IMG/VR virus record: IMGVR_UViG_3300042868_004799 | Coordinates: 7,286 to 71,285 of that record | DNA: 64,000 nucleotides | Direction: 5' to 3' (one strand) | Source: a virus | Shown here: positions 1 through 58,908 of the stretch, piece by piece | How the letters are laid out: each line of letters opens with the position of its first letter | Numbering within the stretch: the stretch's first letter is position 1 | Program-made: the position numbers and the translations under genes | The notes under the pieces: generated by a model | The model's input: only the letters and a program-made list of their open reading frames with translations | Database searches by the model: none | Told to the model about the DNA's origin: nothing

Positions 1-124
1 ATACGTCGCCGCCATGGAGAAGTATCCACTCGCCTTGCTCGATTGTTCGATCAACAAGTCCGCCTGTCTTCGTAACGGTGCCATCGCGCTTATTAGTAAT
101 GACTGCGCCTGAAAGACCTTTCAC
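1..124 (-). CDS. 5' part of a gene running off the window; possible APH/protein-kinase-like phosphotransferase
   Basis: A GTG overlaps the upstream stop (GTGA at 121-124). Manual translation gives MKGLSGAVITNKRDGTVTKTGGLVDRTIEQGEWILLHGGDV, with a Gly loop (GLSG) and VxK as in kinase N-lobes. Only about 41 codons are visible. Confidence 0.45.
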   Translation of the reverse strand, partial: MKGLSGAVITNKRDGTVTKTGGLVDRTIEQGEWILLHGGDV

Positions 125-1359
125 GAAAAAGCACTTTCAATCATTACCTGTGCGGTCTTTCGCGGATCATTTCTTGTGCGCAGCACCGCTCGGTTATGCT
201 GAGCTATTTCCATACGGTCTTTGTCTGATACTTCAAGGCACGTTGTGAATGCATCAGCGACTCTTTGCATCAGCTCAAGGCCCTCTGGTTGCACTAGACG
301 TCCCTGTGTTGGGCAGCCTTTGTACCAATCAAGAACGTGCATTCTGAATTCTGGATCTGATAAATGCTCAGGGACGATACAAAGTGCCCCTGCATCAGCA
401 GCTTCTAGTGTCGAGTACTCAACAAGCCCTCGCGCAAAGTTATAGGCGGTTAGGTTCATATGAACACGAAACCGTTGCGCGATAGCTGCCGAGTCAACGT
501 AGTTGCCTAAGTATCTAATTAGCGCGCGTCCTTCGACTCGAGCGTCCCACGGAAACGGCGAGATGATGTTTCCATCAGTACCTTTAGAAAGATTGATGTT
601 TGTAGCATGGCGGACAACCTGAGCGCCAAAGTGATCCTTTAGAATCTCATAAACAATAAACGTAGGTGATGGCCCTAGGCCAACTGAACATGAACCCCAT
701 ACTTCGACGGTGACATGCTCTGGCAATCTAGTTCCGGCGAGTGCGATAAGAGGCTGACCTTTGTTGTAAATAAAGCGACCAGACGTTCCAACAGTGTAGT
801 TATTTGTGACTGGCGCGTCAATTTCAAATTGCGGAATGTATGGCATTTGCCCTTTAATCCACTCCATTGAAGAAAATAAATCATTGCTGCTGCTTGCGGA
901 ATCTTCGCTCATAGTGACGAGAAGTTTTCCGCGCGACGGAGACTCTAGTAGTTGTGGAACAAAAGGAATGTCCTTACCGGGGTAAAACGATCCATGAAGC
1001 GCGGTTGTCCATGGTGTCTTTGTGCGCCGTAGCGCGTCTACGTACTCGGGCAAAACACCTTCACCCGCTTTAAGGGCTACTTTGTCGTGCAGTGGGATCT
1101 TAATTTCGGGCAAGACAATCATGTCGTACGAGTCAAGCGTCTCAACAAGATTTACTGTTTTTACAACTACGTTTGGAGCTTCACTCCACCAACGCGCGCC
1201 TGGTTGAGGCTTACCCCATGCAGTTCTTGTGCGACCACTTTTTGTGTAAGACACGACGTCGCATTCGTGTCCTAAGCCTATGAACCCATGTTTTAGTCTG
1301 AATGCCCAAGCTGTGGGCCCTTTTACGCCTGGCTCTGGCTCTAAAATAGCAACGCGCAT
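121..1359 (-). CDS. GT-B fold glycosyltransferase, possibly DNA-modifying
   Basis: N-terminal MRVAIL..G..G..W...L..G...LGHECDVV and C-terminal EYSTLEAADAGALCIVP match the GT4/GT-B E-x-EA-x-x-G signature. It lies in the replication/nucleotide module. Confidence 0.75.
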   Translation of the reverse strand: MRVAILEPEPGVKGPTAWAFRLKHGFIGLGHECDVVSYTKSGRTRTAWGKPQPGARWWSEAPNVVVKTVNLVETLDSYDMIVLPEIKIPLHDKVALKAGEGVLPEYVDALRRTKTPWTTALHGSFYPGKDIPFVPQLLESPSRGKLLVTMSEDSASSSNDLFSSMEWIKGQMPYIPQFEIDAPVTNNYTVGTSGRFIYNKGQPLIALAGTRLPEHVTVEVWGSCSVGLGPSPTFIVYEILKDHFGAQVVRHATNINLSKGTDGNIISPFPWDARVEGRALIRYLGNYVDSAAIAQRFRVHMNLTAYNFARGLVEYSTLEAADAGALCIVPEHLSDPEFRMHVLDWYKGCPTQGRLVQPEGLELMQRVADAFTTCLEVSDKDRMEIAQHNRAVLRTRNDPRKTAQVMIESAFS

Positions 1360-1484: not shown

Positions 1485-2063
1485 TCAGAAAGGAGCGGGT
1501 GGTGGCGTATCAATTGCCACCGGTGCCTGTGCAACAGGCTGTTCTTGGATTGGCGCAGCGACAGGTGCAGGAGCAGGTGCCGGAGCAGGTGCCGGAGCGG
1601 GAGCAGGAGCAGGAGCAGGAGCGGCTGCGGCTGGAGCAGGTGCTGCTGTTGCTGCACCAACTACGCTGTAATACGCCTTGATCTCGTTCTTCTTTTGGCC
1701 TTGCCATGTACGTGATCCAACCTGTGCGCGGAACGAGCGGCTTTTGAGTGCCTGTTCGATCTGTGCGTTGCTTGGGTTTGTTGCGAAGAAGTCGCGATTG
1801 AGGCCAAGCGCGTTCATCTTGCGAAAGAAAATTCCAAGTGCTGTCGGATTGTCTGTTGAAATAACAAGGTTGTCCCAAACTAAACGCTTTGCGTGCGCAC
1901 CAGTCTGAACTTCTGCTTTCACAGAGAACATTGTCTTTCCTGATTGCGATACCTTCGCGGTAGCTTCAATGATCGTGAGATCGTAGTCGCCATCTGGAAG
2001 TGGATCGTAGCTGCCAACATCGCCGGCTTCTTTGACTAGGTCTCCCCAGTTTAGTGTACTCAT
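1485..2063 (-). CDS. Phage single-stranded DNA-binding protein (DUF669-like)
   Basis: YDPLPDGDY...SQSGKTM...KNEIK core, Ala/Pro-rich linker and C-terminal PF tail. It lies directly downstream of the Sak4-like gene. Confidence 0.75.
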   Translation of the reverse strand: MSTLNWGDLVKEAGDVGSYDPLPDGDYDLTIIEATAKVSQSGKTMFSVKAEVQTGAHAKRLVWDNLVISTDNPTALGIFFRKMNALGLNRDFFATNPSNAQIEQALKSRSFRAQVGSRTWQGQKKNEIKAYYSVVGAATAAPAPAAAAPAPAPAPAPAPAPAPAPAPVAAPIQEQPVAQAPVAIDTPPPAPF

Positions 2064-2087
2064 GGTTGTTACCGTCTCTTTCTGACG

Positions 2088-2855
2088 TTATTTGGTTTTT
2101 GGTTGTTCCGGACGAGGTCCGAAAATTATATTGAGCATTTCCTCGATACCGAGGTTTTGCTGCTCAACGATCTTGCCTAGACGGCCTTGCACGCGCTCAC
2201 CGGCTTCATACTGGTTTGTGCGTTCTACGTACATACGACGCGCTTTAAACGGCGGCTGTGTCGGGTCTGGGTTAGGAAATTCTTCAACTGTAAGTGCGCC
2301 CAGGATGTCGTAAAAGTACGGCGCCTGAATTGCAAGTTGTCCTTGAAGGTACGGCTTGTAGCGAGCATCTTGACCTTGACGCGCCATGGCTGTAAGAACC
2401 ACAGCTTCAAGAGGATTAGTCGCGTGCATCGTAAGATCTCGAAGATCACGAAGCAATGCGCCCATGTGGCGAAGAAGTTCGCCCCACTGCTGCATTTGCA
2501 TTTGATTCTTTCCAGCGATTGTGTCAACGCACTTGACTTGAAGCTCAGACACTGAGTCAACAATTAGTGACTTAAACTGATGCTTTCCAAGTTGTAGCCA
2601 TTGGTACGCTTTAATTACGGTGTCGTAGTCAGTGACGTTGACAACGCATGTATCCCAAGTGCCATCAGCTATTGGCGGCTCCTCGCGAAGTGGATCCCAA
2701 TACTTAACGTTGATAGGCAAGAAACGATGTCCGCCTTCTACGTCAAGCATGAGGCGTGGATATGGTGCAGTGACTGCAAAAGTCGATTTACCGACCTTAG
2801 ACTCGCCATAGACCATGATAGTTAGTGAACGTTGTACTTCTGACATGTCATTCAT
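2088..2855 (-). CDS. sak4: AAA_24 / Sak4-like ATPase (single-strand annealing protein)
   Basis: Walker A YGESKVGKST, LDVEGG and Walker B-like LIVDSVSE; flanked by an exonuclease and an SSB. Confidence 0.75.
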   Translation of the reverse strand: MNDMSEVQRSLTIMVYGESKVGKSTFAVTAPYPRLMLDVEGGHRFLPINVKYWDPLREEPPIADGTWDTCVVNVTDYDTVIKAYQWLQLGKHQFKSLIVDSVSELQVKCVDTIAGKNQMQMQQWGELLRHMGALLRDLRDLTMHATNPLEAVVLTAMARQGQDARYKPYLQGQLAIQAPYFYDILGALTVEEFPNPDPTQPPFKARRMYVERTNQYEAGERVQGRLGKIVEQQNLGIEEMLNIIFGPRPEQPKTK

Positions 2856-3813
2856 TTCCTTTTATCTCTGTTGTTTTGTAGTAACCGTACGGGTCATCGA
2901 CCTTATACAGTTCGTTAATTGCGTGCTCGGCGGCGCTGCCGTCGTCGAACAGTGGGCAAATAGCGAAGAATTGGCACTTCCACTTGCAATCACGCGATGG
3001 CCGCGGATACGCAACGTAGAAATGGTCTTGACCTTCCTCAAGAGCCTTGCGGACCTTGAGCATGTCACTTACCGTGCCGTGTAGACGATTCCAGAATGAT
3101 CTAAGAGCAAACTGGTTATGTCGAACTTCCATCTGCTCATAGAATGGTGGCTTTGCGTTTGCCGTGCGCTTAACCTTCTTGAGCATAGTGAATATACCGC
3201 CCTCAGAGCGTTCACCCTCTTTGTTTTGATGCGCTTCAAGAACCATGTACGTAAGGATTTGCTCGTTCATATGGGCAAGCGACGCAAACTCAGTAAATGA
3301 GCCGCCGACTGTTTTGAAGTCACGGAACATTCTCACGCCATCGGCCTTGCGGCGTACGCGCATGTCGAGCTTGCCTTGCAAAATTACTTCGCCATCAAAC
3401 ATTGGCATCTCGATAATCTCTTCAGTTGAGATCATTTCAAGTTCAGCGTCGATACCGTTTTCTTCTACCCAGTCAAGGTAACCTTCAAGCATGATACGAC
3501 CAAGTTCAGCTTCACTGTCGAGGTCCATTGTGTCGCGAAAGCTGTCGATAAGCGCTTGCTTATCTTGTTGGACAAGTTCTGCGTACGCTTCAAGAAGCGG
3601 CTTATTCGTAGAATAGTACATATCAAACGCCTCATGGACGCGTGAGCCGAGTGCAAGTGCACCTGTAAAGTTTTTCGTTTGTGGTTGAAGACGACGGTAG
3701 TAAGTAAGCCACCATTTGCGGCGACAGTCTTTGAACGTCTGAATTTCTGAGTTTGAAATTCTAATAGGCCGTGGTGCAATAAGCACTGGCACTGGTACTG
3801 GTTCAATGCTCAC
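2848..3813 (-). CDS. PD-(D/E)XK Cas4/RecB-like exonuclease with Fe-S cysteines
   Basis: ISNSEIQTFKDCRRKW, GSRVH, GKLD, DFKT and C-terminal C-x3-C-x5-C motifs. Confidence 0.85.
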   Translation of the reverse strand: MSIEPVPVPVLIAPRPIRISNSEIQTFKDCRRKWWLTYYRRLQPQTKNFTGALALGSRVHEAFDMYYSTNKPLLEAYAELVQQDKQALIDSFRDTMDLDSEAELGRIMLEGYLDWVEENGIDAELEMISTEEIIEMPMFDGEVILQGKLDMRVRRKADGVRMFRDFKTVGGSFTEFASLAHMNEQILTYMVLEAHQNKEGERSEGGIFTMLKKVKRTANAKPPFYEQMEVRHNQFALRSFWNRLHGTVSDMLKVRKALEEGQDHFYVAYPRPSRDCKWKCQFFAICPLFDDGSAAEHAINELYKVDDPYGYYKTTEIKGNE

Positions 3814-5618
3814 TTGGCACCGCCTTTTCCTGTTTTAAGAATACCGATGAGCTTATCCCTATCGCGAACAATCTGCTCAAAGTTGTCGGCCTTACTGCTC
3901 AGCACGTCGATGACGCGCTCTTCAATTGTGTTGTCTGTTACGTAGTCTGTAATGACGATTGTGTCGTGGATTTCACTGCCGATGCGGTGAACTCTATCCA
4001 TAGCTTGCTTGTGATCGACAAGTGACCATGGGCGTTGGAGCATGACAAGACGTCGTGCGGCTGTAAGTGTAATACCAACACCACCTGCTTGAGCAGTAAA
4101 CAAGATCCACTTAATCTTTCCAGACTGGAAATCATCTACAGCTTTTTGGCGCTGATCTTCATCTTGTGCACCAGTGATAAGGCCGTGTTCAATTTTTGCT
4201 TTAGTCATCGCTGCGCTAAGAAGCTCAATAAGCTGTCGTGACACTGCGCACACTGCAACTGAGTCAGTTCCAAAGTCACCACTTGCAATATCTCCCATAA
4301 GAGCATCTACTTTGCAAGACGGCTCAGCAAGACGAATTCCTGTAGCCTCTCCGGTGAATTCATCAAACTGTGTTTCAGCGTATGAACTTGCAAATTGTAG
4401 AAGACGTGTCGTCTGCGTTAGTACACTTGGCGCGGTAACTGCGTCTCCGCCTTCAAGCTCGGCGATCATAAGATCACGCATCTGCGCGTATGCCTTTGCT
4501 TGCTTTGTTGACATTTCAACATCTCGGCGCTCTGAAAGAACTGGCGGCAACCACGGAAGCACACGTGCCTTAAGCATTCTGCGCATACGCGGATTGATTG
4601 CAGCGTAAAACTCTTCTTCCATGTGCGGCTTTACGCCGAGAACAAGGAGTCCACCAAAAGCGTTCATCATAGTATCGACCATGCGATCGATCCAGCGTGT
4701 CTTGCTTGGCCACTCAGTTGGTGAAAGCCAGTGCAGGATCGGCCATAAGTCAAGAACGTTATTAGCGATAGGCGTACCAGTCAGCGCGTAGCGAATATCA
4801 GCATCGCCTGTTGCGGCCCACAGCGCGCGAGTCTGCTTTGACTTAGGGTCTTTTGAACGATGGATTTCATCAGCGACCACAGCCTTAAAGTCAATTGAGT
4901 TAAGCTCGCGCTTGTGGATTTCACAGCGATTTTCAGTCACTTTTTCATCGTGACCGCCACAGGTAACGCACCGCGCTAGCGCAACTGAACCATATGGTGC
5001 AAGACGCGAGTGTGACCGTAGCGATTCCCAGTTGATTACATAGACATCTGCGTCAGTCGCGAACTGTGCACGACGCTGAGTAGCAGAACCGCTGATTACT
5101 TGTACGCGTACTTCAGGCCACCACATTCCGAATTCACGAAACCAGTTTTTCTTGAGAGTGTTTGGACATGTAATTAGCGCTGGAAAAACGTTTTCAGTTT
5201 CAGACAGTTTCTTAAGCGCGCGGATTGTTTGAGCAGTTTTACCAAGGCCAGGCTCATCAGCAAGAAGTGCTCTACGCGCGGTAGCTAAAAACTCTACGCC
5301 AGCGCGTTGGTGAGGAAACAAATCAGTGTCGCCGCCGTCAAACTCTTCAAGATCGCGCAGCGCGTTCGCTGGAGCAACTCGTGTTGCTAATTCATTGGCC
5401 GCCCACGCGGTAAGGCCAGGCCCGATCTCAAGCTCGCTGCGGAAAGTCGATCGTAGTGAAAGGCAGGTTGCCCAACCTAGTGGAGCGCGCCATGCTTTCT
5501 CGCCAGCGTTCCATGTTGCACCCGGGATCGTTTTACATAGTTCTTTAAAGCGCCACTCAGTGTCGATTTTAATGTATTCGCCGCTACTGCTTAGATCTAC
5601 TTGTACTGCCATTAGCAC
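3810..5618 (-). CDS. SNF2-family DNA helicase
   Basis: LLADEPGLGKT, DEIH, LTGTPIAN, GGVGITLT and QAMDRVHRIG motifs, plus an inserted CxxC..H/C..H zinc knuckle. Confidence 0.92.
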   Translation of the reverse strand: MLMAVQVDLSSSGEYIKIDTEWRFKELCKTIPGATWNAGEKAWRAPLGWATCLSLRSTFRSELEIGPGLTAWAANELATRVAPANALRDLEEFDGGDTDLFPHQRAGVEFLATARRALLADEPGLGKTAQTIRALKKLSETENVFPALITCPNTLKKNWFREFGMWWPEVRVQVISGSATQRRAQFATDADVYVINWESLRSHSRLAPYGSVALARCVTCGGHDEKVTENRCEIHKRELNSIDFKAVVADEIHRSKDPKSKQTRALWAATGDADIRYALTGTPIANNVLDLWPILHWLSPTEWPSKTRWIDRMVDTMMNAFGGLLVLGVKPHMEEEFYAAINPRMRRMLKARVLPWLPPVLSERRDVEMSTKQAKAYAQMRDLMIAELEGGDAVTAPSVLTQTTRLLQFASSYAETQFDEFTGEATGIRLAEPSCKVDALMGDIASGDFGTDSVAVCAVSRQLIELLSAAMTKAKIEHGLITGAQDEDQRQKAVDDFQSGKIKWILFTAQAGGVGITLTAARRLVMLQRPWSLVDHKQAMDRVHRIGSEIHDTIVITDYVTDNTIEERVIDVLSSKADNFEQIVRDRDKLIGILKTGKGGAK

Positions 5619-5691: not shown

Positions 5692-6162
5692 TTAGTATCC
5701 TTCAAGAAGCTTTCTTGGTGTCCAACCGTGTTTTGCTAGGTACAAAAGTCCATGGCGAATAGAGTCAAGAGCATGGCCTTCGCCGCCCTTGTGCCAATAC
5801 CCGAGTTTCTTTAGCGCCTCGTTTGTGAACATGCGCTTTGCGTCAGACGGATTCTGAAAATGAAGAGTACCTTCATGATAGTCGCCTTCACGAAGAAGAT
5901 GCTTAAGAACGCCAATTTGCTCAAGAGAGTATGGTGCCTGTGAGTTCTTTCCAGTCTGCGGAGTAATTGTAAAACTTTCGCAAGCAACGTCAAGAGACCA
6001 TCCGTTTAAGCGCGCATCTAAGATTGCTGAAGCAATTGGTCCAGCAAACTCGTATGGCTGGTATTCGCCTGACCAAACTAAAACGGGCTCATCGCCTTCC
6101 CAAGTAAAGCACGCAATGCCACTTGCTTTTCCTGGATCAACCGCCAAGATCATATTTTTCAT
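5692..6162 (-). CDS. RuvC-like Holliday junction resolvase
   Basis: ILAVDPG, ACESF and HALDSIRH fit the RNase H-fold acidic pattern. Confidence 0.7.
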   Translation of the reverse strand: MKNMILAVDPGKASGIACFTWEGDEPVLVWSGEYQPYEFAGPIASAILDARLNGWSLDVACESFTITPQTGKNSQAPYSLEQIGVLKHLLREGDYHEGTLHFQNPSDAKRMFTNEALKKLGYWHKGGEGHALDSIRHGLLYLAKHGWTPRKLLEGY

Positions 6163-7988
6163 TAGTATTTATCTCCCCATGTTTCGAGTGGTCCATCAAC
6201 GTCTGCAGTGAGCGGTACTGCCCATCCTTCAGACGTTGTCATGCATTGCTTAACGAGCTGCTTGATTTCTTCTGCGTCCTTGCGCGGTGCCTGTAGCACG
6301 ATTTCGTCGTGCACCGGCACGATCAACATTTCGGTGAGATCTGCCTGGTCGAGCTTGACAAGGTTTGCCTTAAACACCTCAGCCGCGCCACCTTGAATTA
6401 GGTAGTTTACAAGAGTGTATACGCGGTTTTCGTCACAAGGAAGTCTGCGGCCTGTCCACGTGTAGACATAGCCCTGGCCTTCTGTCTTAAGACGGCGCAT
6501 TCCAATATCTTCAATCTGTCTCTGGAAGTTTGACATTCCAGGGAATCTATTGTCGAACGCATCGGATGTTTGCTTCATTTGCATTTCAACAACACCTGCT
6601 GTTAAGGCTTGCTTAGCTACGCCGGCACCATATAAGCGTCCGTATACCATGCTCTTAATAAGACCGCGGCGCTTATCACTCTTTTGCATTGACGGATCGT
6701 TGTATACTTCGCGGCCTATTTCAGTGAAAGGATCAGACCCTGTCGCGTCAGCTAGGTGAAACAAGCTAATTAAGTTTGGATCCTGCGACAAGCTCGCAAA
6801 CATGCGAAACTCAACTTGATCAAGGTCAGACGTAATGATGATGTGATTTTCATCTTTAGGTATGAACGCACTGCGAACTACGTTGTCCCCCTTAGGCAGA
6901 GTTTGAAGCGCCGGGTTTGTTATAGACATGCGGCTTGTTCGTGCGCCAAGCGTTCGCACAGACGGATGAACAATTCCGTCGATTGAGCCAGTAAGAAAGT
7001 TAGAAAAATACGTATTAGCAAGTTTGTCTGCCTTGCGTTGTTTAAGAACAGTGTCAGCAAGATTCTTTACTTCGTCTGTGCCAGTAATCATCAGCATCTT
7101 TAGCTGATCTTTTGTGCACGACTTTTGTCCCGTAGGCGTATGTTCAGTAATGTCAGCGCCAAGGCTTTCAAACAGACGCACTAGCTGCTGATTGCTAGTT
7201 ATAGATGTTCCGCTGTACGTTTGCTTTGCCCATGACTTTACAGAATCAGTATATGCGGTCAACTCGTCAAACTTTCGCTTCGAGTAGTCAAGGTCAATTC
7301 GTGCGCCATTGATTTCCATGCGAGTGACGATTCTGCGCGTTGCCATTTCAAGCTCGTAGGCTTTGCTGTATGCTTGGCCGGGTCCGCATTGCTTGTAAAA
7401 CTGTTCCCATAGGCGAGTTGTTAGTACGCAGTCAAGTGCGCCATACGACCAGTACGGTTGAAAGTTAATAGGAACCGTTCCCCATGTCCAACCGTTTTTA
7501 GAAAGTTCAGTGTCAAGAGTTTCTTGCAATGCAACAGCGCGGCTATCGACGTGCAGCGCAGCAAGACGCTTAAGCGCGCCAGAGCCTAGCGGATCAATAA
7601 CATGCGCCATAATCATAGTGTCATGCGCACGATGCCATGGAAGGTCCCATCGAGATTGGATTGCAAACCATCGAGCTTCGAACGCAATGTTGTGGCAGAT
7701 GATAGGTCCATCGAACTTATCCATCGCCTCGTAAAAAACACCTTTCCATTCGTCCCATGGAATAGACCAACCCTGTTCGCCATCGCCGACTTGAACTAAG
7801 CGAAGCTTTCCATGCCACGGAGAAAACGCATCTTCGCGAGGATTACCAGGAAGTTCGCCTGTTTCAGTGTCTACTGAAAGTGCATTGTATGGACGACGCT
7901 CGCTAAGCCATTCTAAAAACTCAGTCGCTTTTTGCGCGTTGTCAACAAGGTGAAGTTTTACATTTGATAGGTCTTCAGACGACATCAT
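6162..7988 (-). CDS. polA: Family A DNA polymerase with 3'-5' exonuclease domain
   Basis: Exo VDTETG/HNIAF/YGALD; motif A DLDQVEFR; motif B RGLIKSMVYGRLYG; NYLIQG; motif C VHDE. Confidence 0.95.
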   Translation of the reverse strand: MMSSEDLSNVKLHLVDNAQKATEFLEWLSERRPYNALSVDTETGELPGNPREDAFSPWHGKLRLVQVGDGEQGWSIPWDEWKGVFYEAMDKFDGPIICHNIAFEARWFAIQSRWDLPWHRAHDTMIMAHVIDPLGSGALKRLAALHVDSRAVALQETLDTELSKNGWTWGTVPINFQPYWSYGALDCVLTTRLWEQFYKQCGPGQAYSKAYELEMATRRIVTRMEINGARIDLDYSKRKFDELTAYTDSVKSWAKQTYSGTSITSNQQLVRLFESLGADITEHTPTGQKSCTKDQLKMLMITGTDEVKNLADTVLKQRKADKLANTYFSNFLTGSIDGIVHPSVRTLGARTSRMSITNPALQTLPKGDNVVRSAFIPKDENHIIITSDLDQVEFRMFASLSQDPNLISLFHLADATGSDPFTEIGREVYNDPSMQKSDKRRGLIKSMVYGRLYGAGVAKQALTAGVVEMQMKQTSDAFDNRFPGMSNFQRQIEDIGMRRLKTEGQGYVYTWTGRRLPCDENRVYTLVNYLIQGGAAEVFKANLVKLDQADLTEMLIVPVHDEIVLQAPRKDAEEIKQLVKQCMTTSEGWAVPLTADVDGPLETWGDKY

Positions 7989-8472
7989 GGTCCTTTATAT
8001 ATGTAACTGCGATATCGCATTTCTTAAGAAACTCAAACACACCGTACGGATCACGGTGCATGTCAGTCGCGCGCAATCGGCAGACAACCTTTGCTATCCC
8101 AGAGTTTGCGATTAACTTTGCGCACTGCATGCACGGCGCGCTTACTATATAGATTGTTCCGCCAAGGCTTAATGAGCGGTCAACGTATAGAAGCGCATTT
8201 GCTTCAGCGTGGATCGACGGGCATGCGTCATATAAGTTGTCAAGCGGTGCGTTGCCTTTAGCTCGCTCGCACCAATTGATGCATTCGCCTGACTCAGGCC
8301 AATTAGCCGCCGGGCCGTTGTACCCGGTTGAAATTATGTGTTGATCGTGCGAAACAATTACTGAACCCATTTGAGCTCGCGAGCAGCGCGATCGCTTGCT
8401 AACAGCCTCGGCTACAGCAAGCCATGTCTCTTCCCACGACGGGCGAGCGTCACTCATCAACGTCATCGTCAT
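7975..8472 (-). CDS. dCMP deaminase
   Basis: RSRC, STGYNG, HAEANA and PCMQC zinc-deaminase motifs. Confidence 0.93.
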   Translation of the reverse strand: MTMTLMSDARPSWEETWLAVAEAVSKRSRCSRAQMGSVIVSHDQHIISTGYNGPAANWPESGECINWCERAKGNAPLDNLYDACPSIHAEANALLYVDRSLSLGGTIYIVSAPCMQCAKLIANSGIAKVVCRLRATDMHRDPYGVFEFLKKCDIAVTYIKDHDVV

Positions 8473-8641
8473 CTGTGTTGCTCATAACGTCTGATATAGA
8501 CGAAGTAAGCATTTTAGCAATAAGCTCGAGCGCTTCTTTTTTACTAAATCCAACTTCTTTAAGAGTTACATACATTTCATGCATCGCAACTGCAGCTTCT
8601 TTCATTGGAGAAGAATAATCAAAATCGTCATCTGATGCCAT
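8450..8641 (-). CDS. Small hypothetical protein
   Basis: Tightly packed ORF between the TS homologue and the deaminase; helical HEMY...GFSKKEALEL pattern. Confidence 0.65.
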   Translation of the reverse strand: MASDDDFDYSSPMKEAAVAMHEMYVTLKEVGFSKKEALELIAKMLTSSISDVMSNTDDDDVDE

Positions 8642-8642
8642 G

Positions 8643-9503
8643 CTAGTGTACCTTACTTTTATTTTTATCGATCGCTTTGACCATTGCCTGAGTATACCAC
8701 AGCTCGGCTGATGTAAGACGGCTACGCAAATGCTCGTCGGTTATTGCGATAAGAGAAGCGTGCGCAGACGCCGCAACTTCGTCCCATGTTCTGCCTGTGA
8801 AGTATGGAATAGGCTCAACTGAGTTAGCTTTCGTAAGACGATCTGCAGCTTCATAGTTGTTTTCATAGATGTGAAGCGATCCAACGTGATGAGCATACGT
8901 CCCGGGCTCAATACCAAGAACTGAGCACATCGCCAGTTGCACACGTGTGAACTGAAAGAAGTCGTACGCGGCGCCAAGCCACACATCGTTTGATCGCATG
9001 TATACACTCATATTGAGCTTGTTGTCGCGGATACGAAACTGATGAAGGATAGTGCACGGATAGTCACGCTTTTTTTCAAGCATGTCACGCTCTGGGTTCC
9101 AAATTGTCACGACACACTGACGCGAGTACGGGTCTTTCTTGAGGCGATCAATCATCACGCCGTACTGGCCATTTGTGCGTGTGCCATACGAACCATGAAA
9201 CTTGCCATCGTCTTCTGTGTAATTAGTAAACTGAGGCCCTACGGCAATAACAGTCTCTGGGTAGCTCGTGCCTGACAGCAACTGTGTAGCTTCAACTGCT
9301 CCAATACCTGGAACAGTTCCACGACCGACGCCGATCGGAAGTGTGTTGTAGACATTGTCAATATAAATAGTAGCGTCTTCAATTTCACGTGTTTTCATTC
9401 CACGTGGCGAGGCCTCTACGCCATTGCGCAGAACATGCTGCACAAGATCGACGTAGCCATTGACGCCGTCCTCAATGTGAATTGTCTTTATCGAAGTATC
9501 CAA
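8643..9503 (-). CDS. Thymidylate-synthase-family enzyme, probably dCMP-specific (dCMP hydroxymethylase-like)
   Basis: SRQ, PC (catalytic Cys), HQF, MRSNDVWLGAAYD and SLHIY motifs. Asp sits at the position equivalent to E. coli ThyA Asn177. Confidence 0.85.
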   Translation of the reverse strand: MDTSIKTIHIEDGVNGYVDLVQHVLRNGVEASPRGMKTREIEDATIYIDNVYNTLPIGVGRGTVPGIGAVEATQLLSGTSYPETVIAVGPQFTNYTEDDGKFHGSYGTRTNGQYGVMIDRLKKDPYSRQCVVTIWNPERDMLEKKRDYPCTILHQFRIRDNKLNMSVYMRSNDVWLGAAYDFFQFTRVQLAMCSVLGIEPGTYAHHVGSLHIYENNYEAADRLTKANSVEPIPYFTGRTWDEVAASAHASLIAITDEHLRSRLTSAELWYTQAMVKAIDKNKSKVH

Positions 9504-10498
9504 GGATCATCTACTTTCGTTGTTACGTAATTTAAGTCGCCAAGTCTTTTAATTGCATTTCCATACGCACTACCGTCATGGTGATGGAATTGAGATACGT
9601 ATTGCGGGTGTGCGACGACGTTGTATGTAGGACTACTAAATCCTGCGTCTTTTAGCCCTTGCTCTGCAGTTCTTCCGAGCGCTACTATTCGCGGCTCGCC
9701 AAGAACGTTCCATAGGTCGCTAAGCCGCTCGCCGTTAATGTCATCGACGTTGATTAAGCCGACTGAGCGCCAAAAATCCTCAGGAAGATTTTTCAATAAG
9801 TAGTCGCCTGAATTGCTGTCAACTGGCATGAACGGGAGAATAGCAGCTGTCTTATCATCGCGCTTGTCGCCGACAAGAAGCACATCGGCTGTTGGACTGC
9901 CAATGTACTCTGGAAACGCTGCTAGGGGCTCAGCCAATTTAGCTTTTTTGGCGGCTTTTTGTATTAGTGCTCCAGCAAGATCTTCATTGTCTTCTAGACT
10001 ATTTTTAGGTGGGCAAACAGTCCCGTCGAGATGCAATACTAGTGAATGGGCGTCCGTATAACCGTCAAGTATCACTGACAGTTCTTCGGCCGTAACGAAG
10101 TCATCTCCACGCGCCTCTAGACGCTCTAGAATGACTTCTAAGGGCTGATAAACCCAAAACTGCGCAATACCCCGAGAAGCCATAAATAGCTCAATCCAGC
10201 GCCATCCAGCGACGCCAAGAAGCCCTCCATAAGGCTCTACGCAGGTCTGGGGACGCTTTAGCGGGGCGTAGGTTATTTCACCCCAATGCCAGCGATCTGC
10301 AATAGCGTGCCTTGCGGTCCAGTCTATAGTAGAAATGCTAATTCCGTATTCGTTAAGGGCCCAGCGACGCGTTTCTTCTTCTGGTTTGCCTTTATGAAAA
10401 AGTGTTACATCGCCGTATTCAAGCAGCAATTGGCGCTTGATTTCAGCGGCAAGAGTGCTCTTGCCCGATGCGTCTGTTCCTTCAAGTACTATGAACAT
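9488..10498 (-). CDS. dNMP (thymidylate-kinase-like) kinase fused to a C-terminal uracil-DNA-glycosylase-like domain
   Basis: N-terminal IVLEGTDASGKST and DRWHWGEITY. C-terminal YIGSPTADVLLVGD, SGDYL, PRIVALGRTA and HPQY resemble family-4 UDG motifs. Confidence 0.75.
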   Translation of the reverse strand: MFIVLEGTDASGKSTLAAEIKRQLLLEYGDVTLFHKGKPEEETRRWALNEYGISISTIDWTARHAIADRWHWGEITYAPLKRPQTCVEPYGGLLGVAGWRWIELFMASRGIAQFWVYQPLEVILERLEARGDDFVTAEELSVILDGYTDAHSLVLHLDGTVCPPKNSLEDNEDLAGALIQKAAKKAKLAEPLAAFPEYIGSPTADVLLVGDKRDDKTAAILPFMPVDSNSGDYLLKNLPEDFWRSVGLINVDDINGERLSDLWNVLGEPRIVALGRTAEQGLKDAGFSSPTYNVVAHPQYVSQFHHHDGSAYGNAIKRLGDLNYVTTKVDDPWILR

Positions 10499-10553: not shown

Positions 10554-11024
10554 TTATGGAATGAGCTCTATTTTATAGATTGACTCAATGCCTTTGTCGA
10601 CTTTGGCGGCGTCGTCAAGAAGTCTTTGCGCAACATTTGTAAGATATCGTGCACCACCATTGTCATACTTATATAGTGCCTCAAGCACAGCGCCTGGGTC
10701 TTCGCTGACCTGTGCCCAATAGCGATTTTTTTCTGGAAAGACAAGCTCAGCAGCAAATGACGGGCGGCACTCATCGCAAGGGACTACATCTGCTCGCACT
10801 TCTTCAGGTGAAATTTCTTGAAGGCCATAGCGCTTCACAAGAGCGCACGCAGCGCCGTGGTAAATCAACGACACACCGACACGAGAAAGAATGTAAGAGC
10901 CGTTTTCTGTCCTATAGAGTTCAAACTCAATCCAACGATGTGAACCACGGCGGTACGAGGACGACTTACCGAGGAGCGTTCCGTTGAATTGTAGGGTACG
11001 TGACCCGTCTTTTACTTCAATCAT
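10554..11024 (-). CDS. Hypothetical phage protein (RWxExxLYRT..G.Y motif, CxxC)
   Basis: Clean ORF with its own intergenic upstream region; no function recognised. Confidence 0.7.
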   Translation of the reverse strand: MIEVKDGSRTLQFNGTLLGKSSSYRRGSHRWIEFELYRTENGSYILSRVGVSLIYHGAACALVKRYGLQEISPEEVRADVVPCDECRPSFAAELVFPEKNRYWAQVSEDPGAVLEALYKYDNGGARYLTNVAQRLLDDAAKVDKGIESIYKIELIP

Positions 11025-36765: not shown

Positions 36766-37529
36766 TTACTGGCACTCCTATTCTCATCAGCGTCGTCATT
36801 TATTGGTCCACCTGTTACCCAGGCGTCGCATGTTCTTGTCGATGCGCACTTGAAATCAAATGCTTCGCAATAACCAAGCTGCGCAGCATCAATCGCGTCC
36901 CATGCATCTTTTTGGCCTGATCCGCCTTGAGAAATGCCGCTAGCGATGCAGTCGCGCATCTTTGTCGTAACTACAAACATAGCACAGTTTCCGCACACTG
37001 ATTGTTTCGATTCTTCTGGAGTCACAGACCAAATCTCAGCTTTAGCAGCCCAGAATGAATGATTAGGATACTCAGGGTTAAGCGGGCCATAGCCAGCGGT
37101 GCGTATGGCCTTACGACGATTTGTAAGGTTAACTGAAATGCTTTGAGTTGCGGGAGGGCATACGTCAGTGCTGATAGCGTTACCTTGCGGCTCTTCAGCG
37201 GCAGCTGTGACAGGCTCTTCAACAGGCTGGCTGCTGATATCTTCAGACTTAACAAGTCCGCCTGCAGCTTGTTTGCTGTCGTACGTCGTAATAAACCCAA
37301 CAGGGACGTCTACTTGATACAACTGGTACTGATCTTCAAGCGCGTCAAAAAACCTTGAGTTGACCTGCTGCCATCCGCTGCTGTCGCGAACAAACGAAGC
37401 TCCTTTTTCCATGCTTGAAAAAATCAAGTACGGTATTTCGTCTGAAGACGCGTCTACTAGCGCGTAAAGCTCATCTGTGCCAGAAAGCTCTGATGGCCAC
37501 TGTGCTTTTGTAACGTCTTGATCTGTCAT
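36762..37529 (-). CDS. Head-module protein with Cys-rich putative metal/Fe-S domain
   Basis: CPPATQ...YGPLNP...CGNC..F...C...GYC..FDFKCA..RTCDAW..GGP. Confidence 0.7.
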   Translation of the reverse strand: MTDQDVTKAQWPSELSGTDELYALVDASSDEIPYLIFSSMEKGASFVRDSSGWQQVNSRFFDALEDQYQLYQVDVPVGFITTYDSKQAAGGLVKSEDISSQPVEEPVTAAAEEPQGNAISTDVCPPATQSISVNLTNRRKAIRTAGYGPLNPEYPNHSFWAAKAEIWSVTPEESKQSVCGNCAMFVVTTKMRDCIASGISQGGSGQKDAWDAIDAAQLGYCEAFDFKCASTRTCDAWVTGGPINDDADENRSASK

Positions 37530-40500
37530 ACGCTTTTTCCGCCTCGTATCTCATTCTGTTCTTGAGAACTTTTGCCAGTATAGTCCGAGGACTCGACTGG
37601 TCTTATTTTATATTGTATACCAACGCTTGAGAAAGTGCCTGTATCAGTTTTTGCATCAAACTCAAGGTCTTCACCGACAAAGTCGATAAAGAATCGTTTT
37701 CCACCATTGTCATCTATCGCTATAATCGCAAGCGAGTAGTCATCGGCAGATATTGGCAATATCACTCGACTTAGGCTATAAATAATGTAGACGCGACCTT
37801 TTCGCGGCCCAGACATAACCTCAAGTGCTGCCGGCTCCATGATGTAACTTCCAGACATTACAAAATACTCTAGGTCAGATATGTAACTAGAACCGCTAGA
37901 CTCTCCAGAAGAAGTCACAGGTGACTCGCTGAGATTATCCATGGTCCCGTCCCAGGTACGGGTGTGGATTTTCTTTAGCAGCTGACCAATCAAGACTCTT
38001 ATGGCCATCGGAAGATCGAGTGCCGTCATTTTTTTAAGTGCGGATAGTAAGCCGCCGTCTGGCAATTCCCCCGACAGGCCTTGCTCAATTAGCGCGTTAA
38101 GCTGCTCTTTGTATCTTTCTTCTAGTTCTTTTGATTCAGGCTGCTTAACGCCTACAGGAATCATCCATTGATCTTTTTCTTTAGCTACATCAATAAGTTC
38201 TTTAATACTGTCTGCTTTAGCTGGCTTCGGGACTACAATAGTTTGCTCGTACGGGTCGTACACCTGTGGCTCGGTGATGCGGTCGTGTATGTAGTAAAAT
38301 CCTGTAGGGTACCGAACAATAAGTCTGCTCATGTCTTCGTCTGCGACTACGGCTTTTGATCCTACTGGCGCCGGAAGGAACTTCATACCAGCAGAAAGCA
38401 GTGTCCCGGTGAGCTCGTGGAAGTCAACACCTGCATCGTCTGCAGTGTCGCTATTAGAAAGTTCTTTTATAGCGTCATCTAGGTCAGCGACTTCGTCAGG
38501 ATAGACTCCAATACCCGCGGACTGCTCGACCTGCCTGCGGTGCACGTTTCCGATTTCTATAACAAAATCTTCTATTGCTGTTTCTCCAATATTAGCTATT
38601 CCGCGATCTTTCAGCATCTTTATTAACGGTGCGCGGACCTCCATACCGACTGCTATGCGAGACGCGTCAGCAAGATCAAGTGTGTGCTTAAACAGTGTCT
38701 CGCTTGAGTTCACATTTATCGCGTCAAGTATGTCTCGGCCTTCAACACGTTTGCCGTAGTCGTCGTCATAGTTTGCGTACGCGCCTAGCTTTTTTAGAAG
38801 TTTTTTCGACTCAAACAGAATTTCGCCTGTAAAAATTCGTGTCGACGGCGTAGCGCCAGTGTAGACAAATTCATCCGCTGACGGGGTCGTAAACACGTAG
38901 TCCGCACTGCCATAACTAATATCTTGGGCCGACGACTGCCCTGATTCTTGATTTCCTTCAAATACTCTAGTAATAGTTGAGCGAAGTGCTGTACTTTCAA
39001 TAAAATCAGCTAAGTATTTGGTAGTGGCATCTATGACCGTTTGGCGAGGTAAGCCAGTTACAGAAGATGCTTGTTGTTCTTCCATGAGCGTAGCTCTGAC
39101 GTTGTAAAAGTTTATAACGTGCGTGAATGATGCGACGCCTGTTGTATCTGCCAGCGCTTCTCCTACAGCGTCTGGCATAACGTACGAAAGAACTCCAAGT
39201 CTGTCTGCTTCAACAGTGACGTCGTCGGCGGTGATCCCCCACTTGTCGGCAATTTGTTTGAGCAGCTCTGCTCTTTTACTGCTATCTCTTTCATACGTTG
39301 TCGCATCTGTCTGCTTGGCAAACAAGCTTAACATCTTATTTTCAACTAAGACTCGCAAGTCTTCTTTTGTGCTTGGCCGAGGATACCGCACGCCTACAGC
39401 CGTCATAGCGTCGATGATGTCTTGTTCAGTTGCACCGCGTGGAAGATCAATATGCACCATGCCGTCAAATGAATTGGCCCCAAGACCGAATTGGCCGTCG
39501 TCGTTTACGATTACGCTGATATTTACGTCGCTGTCTTTACTTGCAGTTGGCATCTCCATTTTGTACGTTTTTCCGGCCCATTTAATTGGCGATGACGAGA
39601 GCATTGGGTTTTGCATGTCAGGGTTGTACATCAGCTCATCGTCTATTACTACGTTGCCCTTATCGTCGATGCGGGCAGAAGGAACCTCAAGCGGGCCTTC
39701 TTCCCAACCAGCAAGTCCACTACTGGGGTCACGATTATCCTTAAAATCTTCAAGCGCCCAGTGCGTTAGCTTAAACCGAAGACGTACTCTGTTTTCTCCT
39801 GTCGCTTTGTCAATAATGCTATTGACTCTGACTTCGAGGTCTTCAATATCTTCACCGTCCGCAAGCGCTGAAAGCCCTACAACGTGGCCACGGTCTGGAG
39901 CTGACATCGTCTGGACCGCGGCCCTAAGTGATGGAATGCCTTCAACTATGGACGTGGAAAAGTCTATTTTTTCAGGAGCTTTTTCTATAGTAGTAGACTT
40001 TGCTACTGGCGGACTCCAAGGTTCATTTGGATCTATAGAATCTCTTGTCTGGTCAACGACTGCAACTCGCATAACGCGAATAGTTCCGTCAGCGTCCTCG
40101 ATTTTACTGATAACTCTGAATGTAGTACCTCTATCGAAAGTAACTTCGTGTTCATCAGCGTGGTCTGTGCCGCCGCCTAGATAGCCCGGCAGGTAAATAG
40201 CTCTTGTACCAGCGGGAGCTACAATCTCGAGAACAAGCTTCGGTGACTTCGTGCCCGGCACCCGATCTGCGTCGTGTGAAGACGCCCATTCTTCAGCTAT
40301 TGCCAGGTCGATTGTAGCAGATCCGTACGCGCTGTCTTGGAACAAATCGCCTACTTCATACGATCTCATCAACTCATCTGAATAGTCGCTGTGGATTCCT
40401 CTGTACAGGACCATGTCTTCTGGGATTGTAGGCGCTTTCTTAAATAGCATGTCCATGCTATAAATGTTTTCTATAATAAACTTAGCCTTTAGAGGCGATA

Positions 40501-57172: not shown

Positions 57173-58908
57173 TGCATTCCCTCTTTCTTCAGCGGAAGCA
57201 AATCCGCATCGTTGCTATTGTATAAATTTGTTGCAAGATTCTTTGCACGTTCAAATGGATTTTCGTCTTCTTTTACAGCGCGAATCCATGCTGCGCGGAA
57301 CGCTGGAATAGCCTCGTAGCCGAGTCCAGAATATTCAGCCATTGCGAAGACAGCGCTTTCAGATGTGTCGTACTCTTCTTCATTCTTGAGCGTAATGACT
57401 AGCTCTGAATCTGCTAAAGCGGAGGCTGTAATAGCCTCACTTGAGTTTGTTGCTTTAGGATGCTTTTCAGGAAGAAGATCGTTGTCTTGTTTGTAGTTCG
57501 AGTTTGTTGGGCGACCAGATGTAACTAGTCGAAGATACGCGTTGACACGAGCCATTGCCCATTGGTCACGAGTCATTCCAGGTCGATGTGAACTTGAGAA
57601 CGCTCCAGCACCTCGACGATAAACAGCTTTAAGCATTCCAAGAGTTACCTTACGGCCAGCAGTTGCTTTTTCATTGTGCTCGTCTACTTTGTTCTTAATT
57701 GCTTTTTCTACTTTGTCTGAGAAAACAATTTTCTTACCGCCAGCGGCTGACCCTGGCTTATTTTTGTCAGAGCCTTTGATTCGATCTTTTTTAGGTGCAG
57801 GCTTAGAGGCTGCAAGCTCCGCGTGCATTTCATCGGCGATAGACGTATCAATGGGAACGCAATTTGGCACCATGTTTCCGTTCTTGCCTTTTTTCATTCC
57901 TACTTGCTTGTATCCGTCCCAGCATGGGCTGCCGCCAGCGGCAGTAACTACGCCGTCAGGGATTAGCGCGAATCTGCAGTAACCGCCGGGCTCAACTTCA
58001 GTTGCAATGATTTTGCACGATGTTCCACCTTCATAGAGAATACAGTTAGCGCATTTAACTCCCTTGTCAGCAAGTTCGTTTTCATCAGCTGATTCATAGC
58101 CTGCCCAAACACCTGAGTCGTCGCTGTTAAACTTGCCGTGCTTTTTTGTAATCTCAATCAGCGCTTCTGCCAGTTCGCGTTCTTCAGCAATGACGACGGG
58201 CTCGTGTCCACTGCTGTACATTGGCGCTAAATCGTCAGAGTAAGCGCGGCAACCGCACATGCATGTCAGCGGGCAGTTGCACGGTCCGACAGAACATCCG
58301 CATGTCGGTGTGCAAACTGGGCAGGCTGCATCAGCACTTTCTACTGCTATGACAACTTCAACGCGAGCTGGAGACACGGCTCCTTGTGATTGAATTCCTG
58401 TGATTGCGCGAAGCTGCCATGCCCATTTTTTGTGCATGCTGTCTCGCTGAGCAAGAAAATCGACGATGCCTTGCTCATCTGCTGCAGTCGCACACTTAAA
58501 CGCAGTGTTAATTTGCGCAAGCATGTCTTCATTGGCTTTAAGAAGTGCCTTGCTCATTGACATTGGATCGCTGTTGACAATGTCTCCGTCGGCAACTACT
58601 GTCATTGAAAGGAAAAGTGCCAGCGACGCGGGCGCATCGTAGCCAAGAGTAAGAATACTTTCCGCATTGACGTCAATCGATTCGTAGACATCAGTTGCAA
58701 TGTCACGAAAGAGATCGTGGAACTCGCGAAAGTCTTGACCTTTTACGTTCCAATGAAAGCCATGTGCTTTTAAGTAAAACGTAAATGCGCTGCTAAGCAT
58801 TACGCTAAGGCAGGCAGCAAGATCGTCTTTGCTTCCTTGCACCATTTGAACTGGCACTTGCATTTCTGTATTCCTTTGGTGAATGATGTTGTTTTCGATG
58901 TTTTCCAT
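57169..58908 (-). CDS. dps: Dps/ferritin-like domain fused to a metallothionein-like Cys cluster, a HiPIP-like domain and phage head-associated domains
   Basis: KAHGFHWNVKG.DF..FH.LF...ID..AE and HKKWAWQLR (Dps); CPVCTPTCGCSVGPCNCPLTCMCGC; CANC..Y....C...VEPGGYC; CWDGYKQVGMK..VPNCVP; VYRRG.GAF..SHRPG...QWA.ARVN. Confidence 0.85.
   Translation of the reverse strand: MENIENNIIHQRNTEMQVPVQMVQGSKDDLAACLSVMLSSAFTFYLKAHGFHWNVKGQDFREFHDLFRDIATDVYESIDVNAESILTLGYDAPASLALFLSMTVVADGDIVNSDPMSMSKALLKANEDMLAQINTAFKCATAADEQGIVDFLAQRDSMHKKWAWQLRAITGIQSQGAVSPARVEVVIAVESADAACPVCTPTCGCSVGPCNCPLTCMCGCRAYSDDLAPMYSSGHEPVVIAEERELAEALIEITKKHGKFNSDDSGVWAGYESADENELADKGVKCANCILYEGGTSCKIIATEVEPGGYCRFALIPDGVVTAAGGSPCWDGYKQVGMKKGKNGNMVPNCVPIDTSIADEMHAELAASKPAPKKDRIKGSDKNKPGSAAGGKKIVFSDKVEKAIKNKVDEHNEKATAGRKVTLGMLKAVYRRGAGAFSSSHRPGMTRDQWAMARVNAYLRLVTSGRPTNSNYKQDNDLLPEKHPKATNSSEAITASALADSELVITLKNEEEYDTSESAVFAMAEYSGLGYEAIPAFRAAWIRAVKEDENPFERAKNLATNLYNSNDADLLPLKKEGMQ

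Follow-up and report, generated by a model that had tools for sequence, protein, structure and literature searches.

Introduction

The placing of 5-hydroxymethylcytosine (hmC) in phage DNA is a strategy that has been known since T4. In the MetaGPA study (eLife 2021), the thymidylate synthase (TS) domain showed the strongest association of all domains with DNA that had been selected for modified cytosine; among the residues, position 177 was the top differential one, together with position 147, and TS co-occurred with dCMP deaminase and MazG-type pyrophosphatase on the modified contigs (PMC8670742). The residue rules used in the present work were also published previously. Here, we describe a TS homologue (8643-9503, minus strand) encoded in a 64,000-nt window of viral DNA, which spans positions 7286-71285 of the 71,285-nt IMG/VR contig IMGVR_UViG_3300042868_004799, about 44% complete. 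An earlier note on this DNA had read the gene and its neighbours as a modified-cytosine pathway, in which an Asp-type TS homologue acts on dCMP and is accompanied by the phage's own deoxynucleoside monophosphate (dNMP) kinase and a dCMP deaminase. The residues, the protein families and the synteny support this core reading, and the three family assignments held. We consider it likely that the enzyme is a folate-dependent dCMP 5-hydroxymethylase, not a thymidylate synthase, working in a T4-style hmC pathway that possibly also glycosylates the base.

The sole named near relative of the contig is Actinomycetia phage DSL-LC01 (129 kb, metagenome-assembled), which shares 71% nucleotide identity over 55% of the region of the finding. 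Among the cultured relatives, which also include the Gordonia phages Forza, Boopy and GMA2, the Gordonia phages GodonK and Sixama carry a matching active-site signature. In GenBank, the trio of DSL-LC01 and of the Gordonia phages is named deoxycytidylate deaminase, thymidylate synthase and thymidylate kinase, and the JGI annotations likewise label the TS-fold family "thymidylate synthase". The word "thymidylate" has zero occurrences in the DSL-LC01 paper. Coordinates below refer to the window unless the contig is named.

Active site of the TS homologue

The 286-residue protein, with a TTG start, matched PF00303 with 94.5 bits against a cut-off of 24.3 (E = 8.1e-27). It was aligned with E. coli ThyA (NC_000913, using MAFFT), RB69 Td, T4 gp42, the RB69 gene-42-region homologue, SPO1 gp29, and the homologues of SP10, M6, ViI, phiW-14 and Atu_ph04. 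The alignment row was that of the cluster representative P0001, which has one difference from the window protein (V229I); the key motifs were read on the window protein itself. Conservation was followed in a close set of 120 homologues (67-100% identity) and in a wide set of 150 representatives of 50%-identity clusters, the best 150 of 12,226 hits with E<=0.001. Columns are numbered as in ThyA, whereas residues named with their position, such as Asp181, carry the numbering of their own protein.

The segment RSNDVWLGAAYD comprises residues 170-181 and ends with Asp181 (codon GAC, 8961..8963, minus strand). As the earlier note had claimed, Asp181 aligned with ThyA Asn177, the base-specificity residue, which is Asp179 in T4 dCMP hydroxymethylase. 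Asn at position 177 is found in enzymes for dUMP and Asp in those for dCMP (PMC8670742; PMC13326640). All 120 close homologues and all 150 representatives had Asp in this column, and Asp181 is no chance substitution. The catalytic nucleophile, Cys150 (9054..9056, minus strand), occupied the ThyA Cys146 column. Three residues before it, within a DYPC motif, Asp147 (9063..9065, minus strand) aligned with ThyA Leu143 and Asp145 of T4 dCMP hydroxymethylase (dCH); Asp was present here in 120/120 close homologues and 143/150 representatives. Position 143 is bulky and hydrophobic in methyl-forming enzymes and Asp or Glu in hydroxymethylases (PMC6400193; PMC13326640). In T4 dCH, the Asp145 carboxylate activates water, and the D145N variant is inactive (PMC6400193). 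Finally, Asp173 (8985..8987, minus strand) was located in the ThyA Asp169 column, in which Asn marks the flavin-dependent 5-hydroxy-dCMP synthases (PMC13326640). Both sets were uniform in this column as well (Asp in 120/120 and 150/150). The catalytic Tyr106 was kept.

Ten positions were compared across the fold, i.e., 143, 146, 147, 165, 166, 167, 168, 169, 173 and 177. The window protein carries D, C, T, M, R, S, N, D, G and D, which is identical to T4 gp42 (D, C, T, M, R, S, N, D, G, D) at 10/10 positions. E. coli ThyA has L, C, H, Q, R, S, C, D, G and N, and SPO1 and SP10 have D, C, N, N, R, S, N, D, G and N. In the enzymes of M6, ViI and phiW-14, positions 147 and 177 are each occupied by Asn, and the 5-hydroxy-dCMP-type homologues of RB69 and Atu_ph04 have E, C, T, M, R, S, Q, N, V and D. 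Compared to ThyA, the window protein differs at positions 143, 147, 165, 168 and 177, and each change is towards T4 gp42. The ThyA traits of a bulky hydrophobic residue at 143, His147 and Gln165 are absent, with Asp147, Thr151 and Met169 in their place.

The GenBank names would fit an ordinary thymidylate pathway, in which the deaminase yields dUMP, the TS homologue dTMP and the kinase dTDP, and Asp181 is a tolerated variant; such a trio is the textbook route to dTDP. The five active-site differences from ThyA, all pointing to gp42, speak against it. So does the behaviour of eight NCBIfam equivalog models for thymidylate synthase, which all matched below their cut-offs and by a wide margin (the best with 79.2 bits against 174.55), and so does the C-terminal segment of ThyA, which in our alignment is replaced by an unrelated helical tail. 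Moreover, the D179N substitution in T4 dCH and N177D in ThyA switch or abolish activity (PMC6400193; PMC8670742), and we regard a tolerated Asp in a working thymidylate synthase as very improbable.

Asp at position 177 would also be compatible with a dCMP methyltransferase, which would form 5-methyl-dCMP, as in Xanthomonas phage XP12, with the product either entering DNA or being deaminated to dTMP. The Asn177-to-Asp mutants of true thymidylate synthases do methylate dCMP (cited in PMC8670742). The order of kinase, TS homologue and deaminase would yield dTMP if 5-methyl-dCMP were deaminated, and no other thymidylate synthase was found in the contig or the complete relatives. It is the carboxylate at position 143 that argues against methylation: Asp, and not a bulky hydrophobic residue, is what nearly all homologues of both sets carry, and it corresponds to the residue without which T4 dCH is dead. 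The characterised enzymes with Asp or Glu143 in our alignment, which was without a verified XP12-type methyltransferase, all give a hydroxymethyl or hydroxy product. Methylation of dCMP seems to us quite unlikely, if a little less so than plain thymidylate synthesis.

We also considered that the enzyme might add a different C5 group to dCMP or act on another cytosine nucleotide such as CMP, and so form a product that has not been described before. Its best solved relative by sequence is MilA (2e-20), a hydroxymethylase of CMP; the clade of the TS homologue is large (480 cluster representatives at E<=1e-30), and the flavin-dependent 5-hydroxy-dCMP synthases show that few residue changes shift the product chemistry (PMC13326640). 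Nevertheless, enzymes for deoxyribose substrates have Ser167 and Arg126', and MilA has Ala and Lys at these sites (PMC5175136). The window protein carries the deoxyribose-type determinants, Ser171 and Arg128, the latter aligned to Lys133 of MilA; both are of the TS/dCH type. Asp173 argues against 5-hydroxy chemistry, and the genomic context is that of DNA replication rather than secondary metabolism. We find it hard to credit such deviating chemistry.

In terms of the product, the earlier note had proposed 5-hydroxymethyl-, 5-methyl- or 5-hydroxy-dCMP. The published residue rules at positions 143, 169 and 177 lead us to favour 5-hydroxymethyl-dCMP, with Asp147 as the residue in its support; 5-methyl-dCMP is disfavoured by the same Asp147, and 5-hydroxy-dCMP by Asp173.

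Organisation and synteny of the module

The module consists of four co-directional open reading frames (ORFs) on the minus strand, arranged head-to-tail in the order kinase, TS homologue, a 63-residue ORF and deaminase. The kinase gene (9488-10498, 336 residues) encodes a fusion with a domain similar to uracil-DNA glycosylase (UDG). The start of the TS homologue overlaps the kinase stop by 16 nt. The 63-residue ORF (8450-8641) is acidic; it had no Pfam or PHROG family match and is missing from the DSL-LC01 annotation. The deaminase gene (7975-8472, 165 residues) overlaps the start of a gene for a family A DNA polymerase, PolA (6162-7988, minus strand; PF00476, 1.5e-56). The adjoining PolA gene runs in the same direction and puts the module inside the replication gene block. 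DSL-LC01, GodonK and Sixama have the same polymerase neighbour.

The deaminase matched PF00383 (67.3 bits against a cut-off of 25, E = 1.2e-18) and phrog_174 (8.2e-38). The zinc motifs HAE and PCxxC are both present, within SIHAEAN and SAPCMQCA, respectively, and from these features the protein is predicted to be a standard zinc dCMP deaminase.

Synteny was analysed in 80 related IMG/VR loci with 65-76% TS identity, which belong to one lineage and are hence not independent. The kinase was found upstream as one open frame in all 74 loci with sufficient upstream DNA, and the deaminase lay downstream of the TS-fold gene in 79/79. A homologue of the 63-residue ORF was detected in 69 of 79 loci (tblastn, E<=1e-5), at the same place in the loci listed. 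GodonK and Sixama have the order kinase, TS, small ORFs and deaminase; the polymerase follows directly after the deaminase in GodonK and two genes further in Sixama.

Directly upstream of the kinase lies a 156-residue ORF (10554-11024, minus strand) without a family match. It is kept at 68-81% identity in the related loci listed and sits between the tail-fibre genes and the nucleotide module.

Pyrophosphatase and glycosyltransferase candidates

Several genes of possible relevance are located just upstream of the window, on the same contig and strand. They encode WhiB, a denV-like glycosylase, a C5-cytosine-methylase-like protein and DUF6378, followed by a 154-residue NTP pyrophosphatase, a 335-residue protein, a sugar nucleotidyltransferase, an HAD hydrolase, an APH-like kinase and the 412-residue ORF of the window. 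The pyrophosphatase (contig 3947-4411, minus strand) is all-alpha, and its sole match in T4 was gene 56 (dCTPase/dUTPase), with E = 7.2e-7.

The 335-residue protein (contig 4411-5418, minus strand) had no sequence-family match in Pfam, PHROG or NCBIfam, and is 37% identical to the DSL-LC01 protein at the same place. Its AlphaFold2 model (pLDDT 94.5) has a GT-B fold. The top Foldseek match of the model was T4 beta-glucosyltransferase (BGT; 1qkj), with E = 4.5e-6 and TM 0.56-0.58. VIA also placed T4 BGT first, with Z = 17.6, root-mean-square deviation (rmsd) 3.7 and 290-295 aligned residues; the next family, SenB, reached Z = 16.5, which means that BGT is the top match but nearly tied, with a margin of about 1 Z unit.

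The BGT-like gene is followed by sugar-nucleotide genes (NTP_transferase, HAD and APH-like kinase). DSL-LC01 has UDP-galactopyranose mutase and another glycosyltransferase at the same spot; the sugar cassette therefore varies between the relatives, and the pyrophosphatase and BGT-like gene stay.

The earlier note had suggested hypermodified, restriction-resistant DNA from the module together with a glycosyltransferase. The protein meant is probably that at 61924-62907 (minus strand), which is of the GlcNAc type (PF11397, 3.8e-20); its gene is found with the virion genes on the portal side, some 52 kb away from the module. It is probably outside the DNA pathway. The BGT-like protein encoded outside the window is a better candidate for DNA glycosylation.

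The 412-residue ORF (121-1359, minus strand) was considered as a second glycosyltransferase. Its nearest ESM Atlas clusters are named DNA alpha-glucosyltransferase (score 0.99), and in one of these PF11440 is present in 100% of the members (0.98). This language-model lead to a relative of T4 alpha-glucosyltransferase (AGT) was not confirmed by sequence: PF11440 had 0 matches in the contig, and hhalign to T4 AGT gave a probability of 0.8%. The ORF had no match in T4 or four other genomes, belongs to no known family, and gave as its best Pfam match Glyco_trans_1_2, with E = 0.09.

Proposed pathway

Taken with the residue rules, the genes suggest the following course for a dCMP 5-hydroxymethylase pathway. 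The residues with their conservation, the folds and the synteny are observations, and the substrates of the enzyme and of the kinase, the product, the entry of hmC into DNA and its glycosylation are inferred. Cys150 would attack C6 of dCMP, and Asp181 would read and protonate the cytosine ring. A water molecule activated by Asp147 would then add to the exocyclic methylene intermediate, giving 5-hydroxymethyl-dCMP. The product would be converted to the diphosphate by the kinase, whose gene lies upstream and overlaps translationally, and to the triphosphate by host enzymes. The phage family A polymerase would put hmC into the phage DNA. Meanwhile, the gp56-like NTP pyrophosphatase would supply dCMP and lower dCTP, and the dCMP deaminase would divert part of the dCMP to dUMP for the host thymidylate synthase, as T4 Cd does for Td. 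After replication, the BGT-like glycosyltransferase would probably add a sugar to hmC.

Points weighing against the proposed pathway

Several observations weigh against this assignment. The first concerns descent. The TS-superfamily tree foreseen in the earlier note (FastTree, 164 sequences) placed the window protein within a clade of 154 members with the Gordonia phage enzymes (support 0.886). The first to join this clade are the dUMP hydroxymethylases of SPO1 and SP10, together with the Asp-type enzymes of Bacillus phage G, MW202621 and PW916 (support 0.973), and gp42 follows only after them; the window protein is nearer the SPO1-type enzymes than gp42. BLASTP gave only 31% identity with T4 gp42 over 124 residues. 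Judged by sequence, the TS homologue is not a gp42 orthologue, and its assignment therefore rests on the residue rules and not on descent. Missing common descent with gp42 lowers the claim of orthology, not the claim of a gp42-like function.

The second concerns the Ser94-x-Tyr96 signature of T4, whose Ser does not recur in the window protein as far as the sequence shows. Here the residues are Gly104-Ser105-Tyr106, with Ser105 directly before the Tyr and in the column of ThyA Val93, and Val93 has been described as the structural equivalent of T4 Ser94 (PMC6400193). The Ser105 column is Ala in 84/120 close homologues and 127/150 representatives. The signature Ser is also missing from the known dUMP hydroxymethylases.

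The third is a conserved gene for a C5-cytosine-methylase-like protein (contig 1926-3209, minus strand; PF00145, 1.6e-24), 66% identical in DSL-LC01. The protein keeps the catalytic GCPPCSGWS and the motif VI Glu (FECV), and its usual N-terminal, glycine-rich FxGxG loop for S-adenosylmethionine is replaced by DCNGLAAF; DSL-LC01 has this variant loop too. Such a protein would have no target if every cytosine were hmC. The replacement may therefore be partial, or the protein may have another role; in either case the gene argues against full cytosine replacement.

The last concerns the supply of thymidylate. The statement of the earlier note that the window lacks an Asn-type ThyA was borne out, with a single PF00303 match in the contig, about 44% complete. 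None of the four complete relatives (DSL-LC01, GodonK, Sixama and MW202621) has ThyX (PF02511, 0/4). A second ThyA was not found either: DSL-LC01 has a single PF00303 match, and tblastn gave one place per relative record. The complete relatives lack both ThyA and ThyX, which makes the role of the deaminase less clearly T4-like and leaves some room for the idea of the earlier note that the deaminase converts the modified dCMP to 5-hydroxymethyl-dUMP or dTMP. As an outside chance, since a phage thymidylate synthase is lacking, the deaminase may turn part of the 5-hydroxymethyl-dCMP into 5-hydroxymethyl-dUMP, so that both pyrimidines would be replaced.

In a stronger form of this idea, the deaminase would convert much or all of the 5-hydroxymethyl-dCMP to 5-hydroxymethyl-dUMP, the kinase would phosphorylate it, and thymine, alone or with cytosine, would be replaced by 5-hydroxymethyluracil (hmU) or a derivative of it. 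Besides the lack of ThyA and ThyX, this would agree with the constant place of the deaminase beside the TS homologue in the related loci and with the kinase domain being of the thymidylate-kinase/YorR type. The conserved C5-methylase-like gene would also make sense if cytosine stays unmodified. However, we rate deamination of modified dCMP low because the five known hmU phages checked use Asn-type enzymes, which are fed with dUMP by the deaminase (PMC8989533), and because the MetaGPA selection recovered contigs with TS plus deaminase as carriers of modified cytosine (PMC8670742). T4 likewise has both gp42 and Cd. A literature search found no report of a deamination route for 5-hydroxymethyl-dCMP, and the scanned ORFs had no match to hmU DNA kinase or pyrophosphorylase families, although the libraries may lack such families. 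Replacement of thymine by hmU appears unlikely to us, and the hydroxymethylation of dCMP for incorporation as hmC is still the reading that we prefer.

We also observed that two genes of the joining branch carry different annotations. The gene of Pseudoxanthomonas phage PW916 (OL960029) is annotated as deoxyuridylate hydroxymethyltransferase and that of MW202621, a Manatee Spring contig, as "pyrimidine hmase". Both have the dCMP-type residues Thr147, Met165 and Asp177, which casts some doubt on the naming of the PW916 gene as a dUMP enzyme.

Kinase fused to a UDG-like domain

The N-terminal dNMP-kinase domain (residues 1-191; 9926..10498, minus strand) matched phrog_761, thymidylate kinase, over residues 1-169 (1.4e-11). 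The P-loop GTDASGKS, the DRW motif and the arginine-rich lid RLEARGDD are invariant in the alignment A1. In the AlphaFold2 model of the full-length protein (pLDDT 94.5, pTM 0.93), the best VIA structure match was SPbeta YorR (3kb2; Z = 18.1, rmsd 2.7, 169 aligned residues), with thymidylate kinases at Z 14-15.8. A profile search of the PDB with alignment A1 also gave YorR (8e-10). The sole Pfam match, AAA_18, had 19.4 bits and remained below its cut-off of 29.4. The modelled fold and the motifs, and not a curated model, place the protein among the P-loop NMP kinases. A kinase of the T4 gp1 type was ruled out as a detectable relative: searching T4, RB69 and SPO1 with the 336-residue protein gave nothing at E<=1.

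The C-terminal domain (residues ~196-336; 9491..9913, minus strand) is fused in frame and has a UDG-like fold in the full-length model. With the full model as query, Foldseek found the T. maritima family-4 UDG structures 1vk2 (E = 1.4e-4) and 1l9g (E = 4.4e-4), both with probability 1.00 and with TM 0.47-0.49 on the target. In VIA, run on the whole kinase model, the kinase-domain matches filled the list, which held no Z score for the UDG part. The domain had no match in Pfam, PHROG or NCBIfam, and no PDB sequence match with profile A1. Its motifs are VGDKRD, PFMPVDSNSG and HPQYV, with the consensus VGD-x-R-(D/N), PFMPV-x-x-NSG and HPQ.

Family-4 UDGs carry GE(A/G)PG as motif A and HPS as motif B, and four of their Cys residues serve a 4Fe-4S cluster. 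The window domain shares the fold of 1vk2 and 1l9g, and its loop order (G-acidic, PF...SG..L, HP-x) resembles that of family 4. It differs in having VGD-x-R-(D/N) instead of GE(A/G)PG and HPQ instead of HPS, in its fusion to a kinase, and in the lack of a sequence-level match. The conserved cysteines for the iron-sulfur cluster are absent as well, with no invariant Cys in residues 196-336 of alignment A1. The length of the fusion is kept at 328-340 residues in 120 listed homologues, whereas the Gordonia phage kinases match the N-terminal half only. A literature search found no description of a kinase-UDG-like fusion.

We speculate, as an outside chance, that the domain is a working, modification-aware module for base recognition, i.e., a glycosylase removing uracil or unmodified cytosine, or a pocket that checks the pyrimidine. 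A single protein would then supply replication with hydroxymethyl-dCDP and at the same time guard the DNA against canonical pyrimidines. Such a protein would be a counterpart, with a different fold, to the cytosine-specific nucleases of T4. In any case, the conserved fusion provides a defined protein for asking what a glycosylase fold does in a nucleotide-precursor pathway.

Contig, environment and other genes

The gene content of the contig is that of a siphovirus-type actinobacterial phage, with tape measure, major tail and head proteins, portal and a replication block; a gene for a WhiB regulator lies just upstream of the window. Sampled words of the region were found in lake and freshwater metagenome contigs from 18 studies. 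Some part of the stretch was present in 20 of the 22 sequencing rows listed, and at least half of its words in 5, with 3 rows possibly being the source sample. These rows are all contigs, and none has the raw signal or library type able to show base modification.

We also noted two unusual genes among those for the virion. An ORF of 6548 residues (37526-57172, minus strand) lies between the portal-side genes and an ORF of 1559 residues whose PHROG matches are families of portal proteins and of head maturation proteases. Searched with Pfam in two halves, the 6548-residue protein matched RNase_T exonuclease, the N-terminus of UvrD-type helicase, WYL and KTSC, and it also has four stretches of ADP-ribosyltransferase exoenzyme domain (3.3e-37). 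The protein is probably a giant with several enzyme domains that is part of the virion or is ejected. The other, an ORF of 579 residues (57169-58908, minus strand), adjoins the portal gene and combines a ferritin-like domain (PF00210, 3e-14) with DUF5824, a pairing that is unusual among packaging genes.

Significance

The finding is a new lineage and an architectural variant of a known strategy. Cytosine in the phage DNA is probably modified, which would extend a familiar means of escaping restriction to a lineage of phages new to it. If this is true, a widespread group of freshwater actinobacterial phages of ~130-150 kb, together with GodonK and Sixama, would carry hmC, probably glycosylated. 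Our literature searches found no report of hmC for phages of actinobacterial hosts and no chemistry on close relatives. Modified DNA of this kind would account for resistance to restriction by the host and to certain CRISPR nucleases, and sequencing and cloning of the DNA would be affected. The prediction would also correct the name "thymidylate synthase" in the public records and JGI annotations.

Comparison with known systems

The hmC pathway of T4, with gp56, gp42, gp1, Cd and the alpha- and beta-glucosyltransferases, has the same logic and enzyme classes as the pathway proposed here. The homologous parts common to both are the gp56-like, gp42-like, Cd-like and BGT-like proteins. In contrast to T4, the TS-fold enzyme comes from another branch, nearer the SPO1-type enzymes, and the kinase, which carries a UDG-like domain as a fusion, belongs to the YorR/thymidylate-kinase type and has no detectable T4 similarity. 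Unlike T4, the complete relatives have no phage thymidylate synthase, and the contig has a C5-methylase-like gene. The phage also differs in its actinobacterial host and its siphovirus-type virion.

The contigs recovered by MetaGPA have the same Asp177, a changed position 147, dCMP deaminase and MazG-type pyrophosphatase (PMC8670742). They often carry a carbamoyltransferase, leading to 5-carbamoyloxymethylcytosine (PMC8670742), and none was found among the ORFs scanned here.

The dUMP hydroxymethylases (SPO1 gp29, SP10, M6, ViI, phiW-14) form the nearest characterised branch in the tree. They share with the window protein Asp at position 143, Arg-Gln after the phosphate-binding Ser/Thr, and a long C-terminal tail that is not of the ThyA type. 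Their hmU phages also encode dCMP deaminase (PMC8989533). The dUMP enzymes have Asn147, Asn177 (5/5) and Asn or Gln165, whereas the window protein has Thr, Asp and Met in these columns.

The 5-hydroxy-dCMP synthases (RB69 gp48, DLP3 gp80 and those of Pootjesviridae; NAR 2026, PMC13326640) also have the TS fold, Asp177 and an acidic residue at 143, and are partnered with a cognate dNMP kinase and DNA glycosyltransferases (PMC13326640). They differ in carrying Asn169, Gln168 and Val173, in place of which the window protein has, in its own numbering, Asp173, Asn172 and Gly177.

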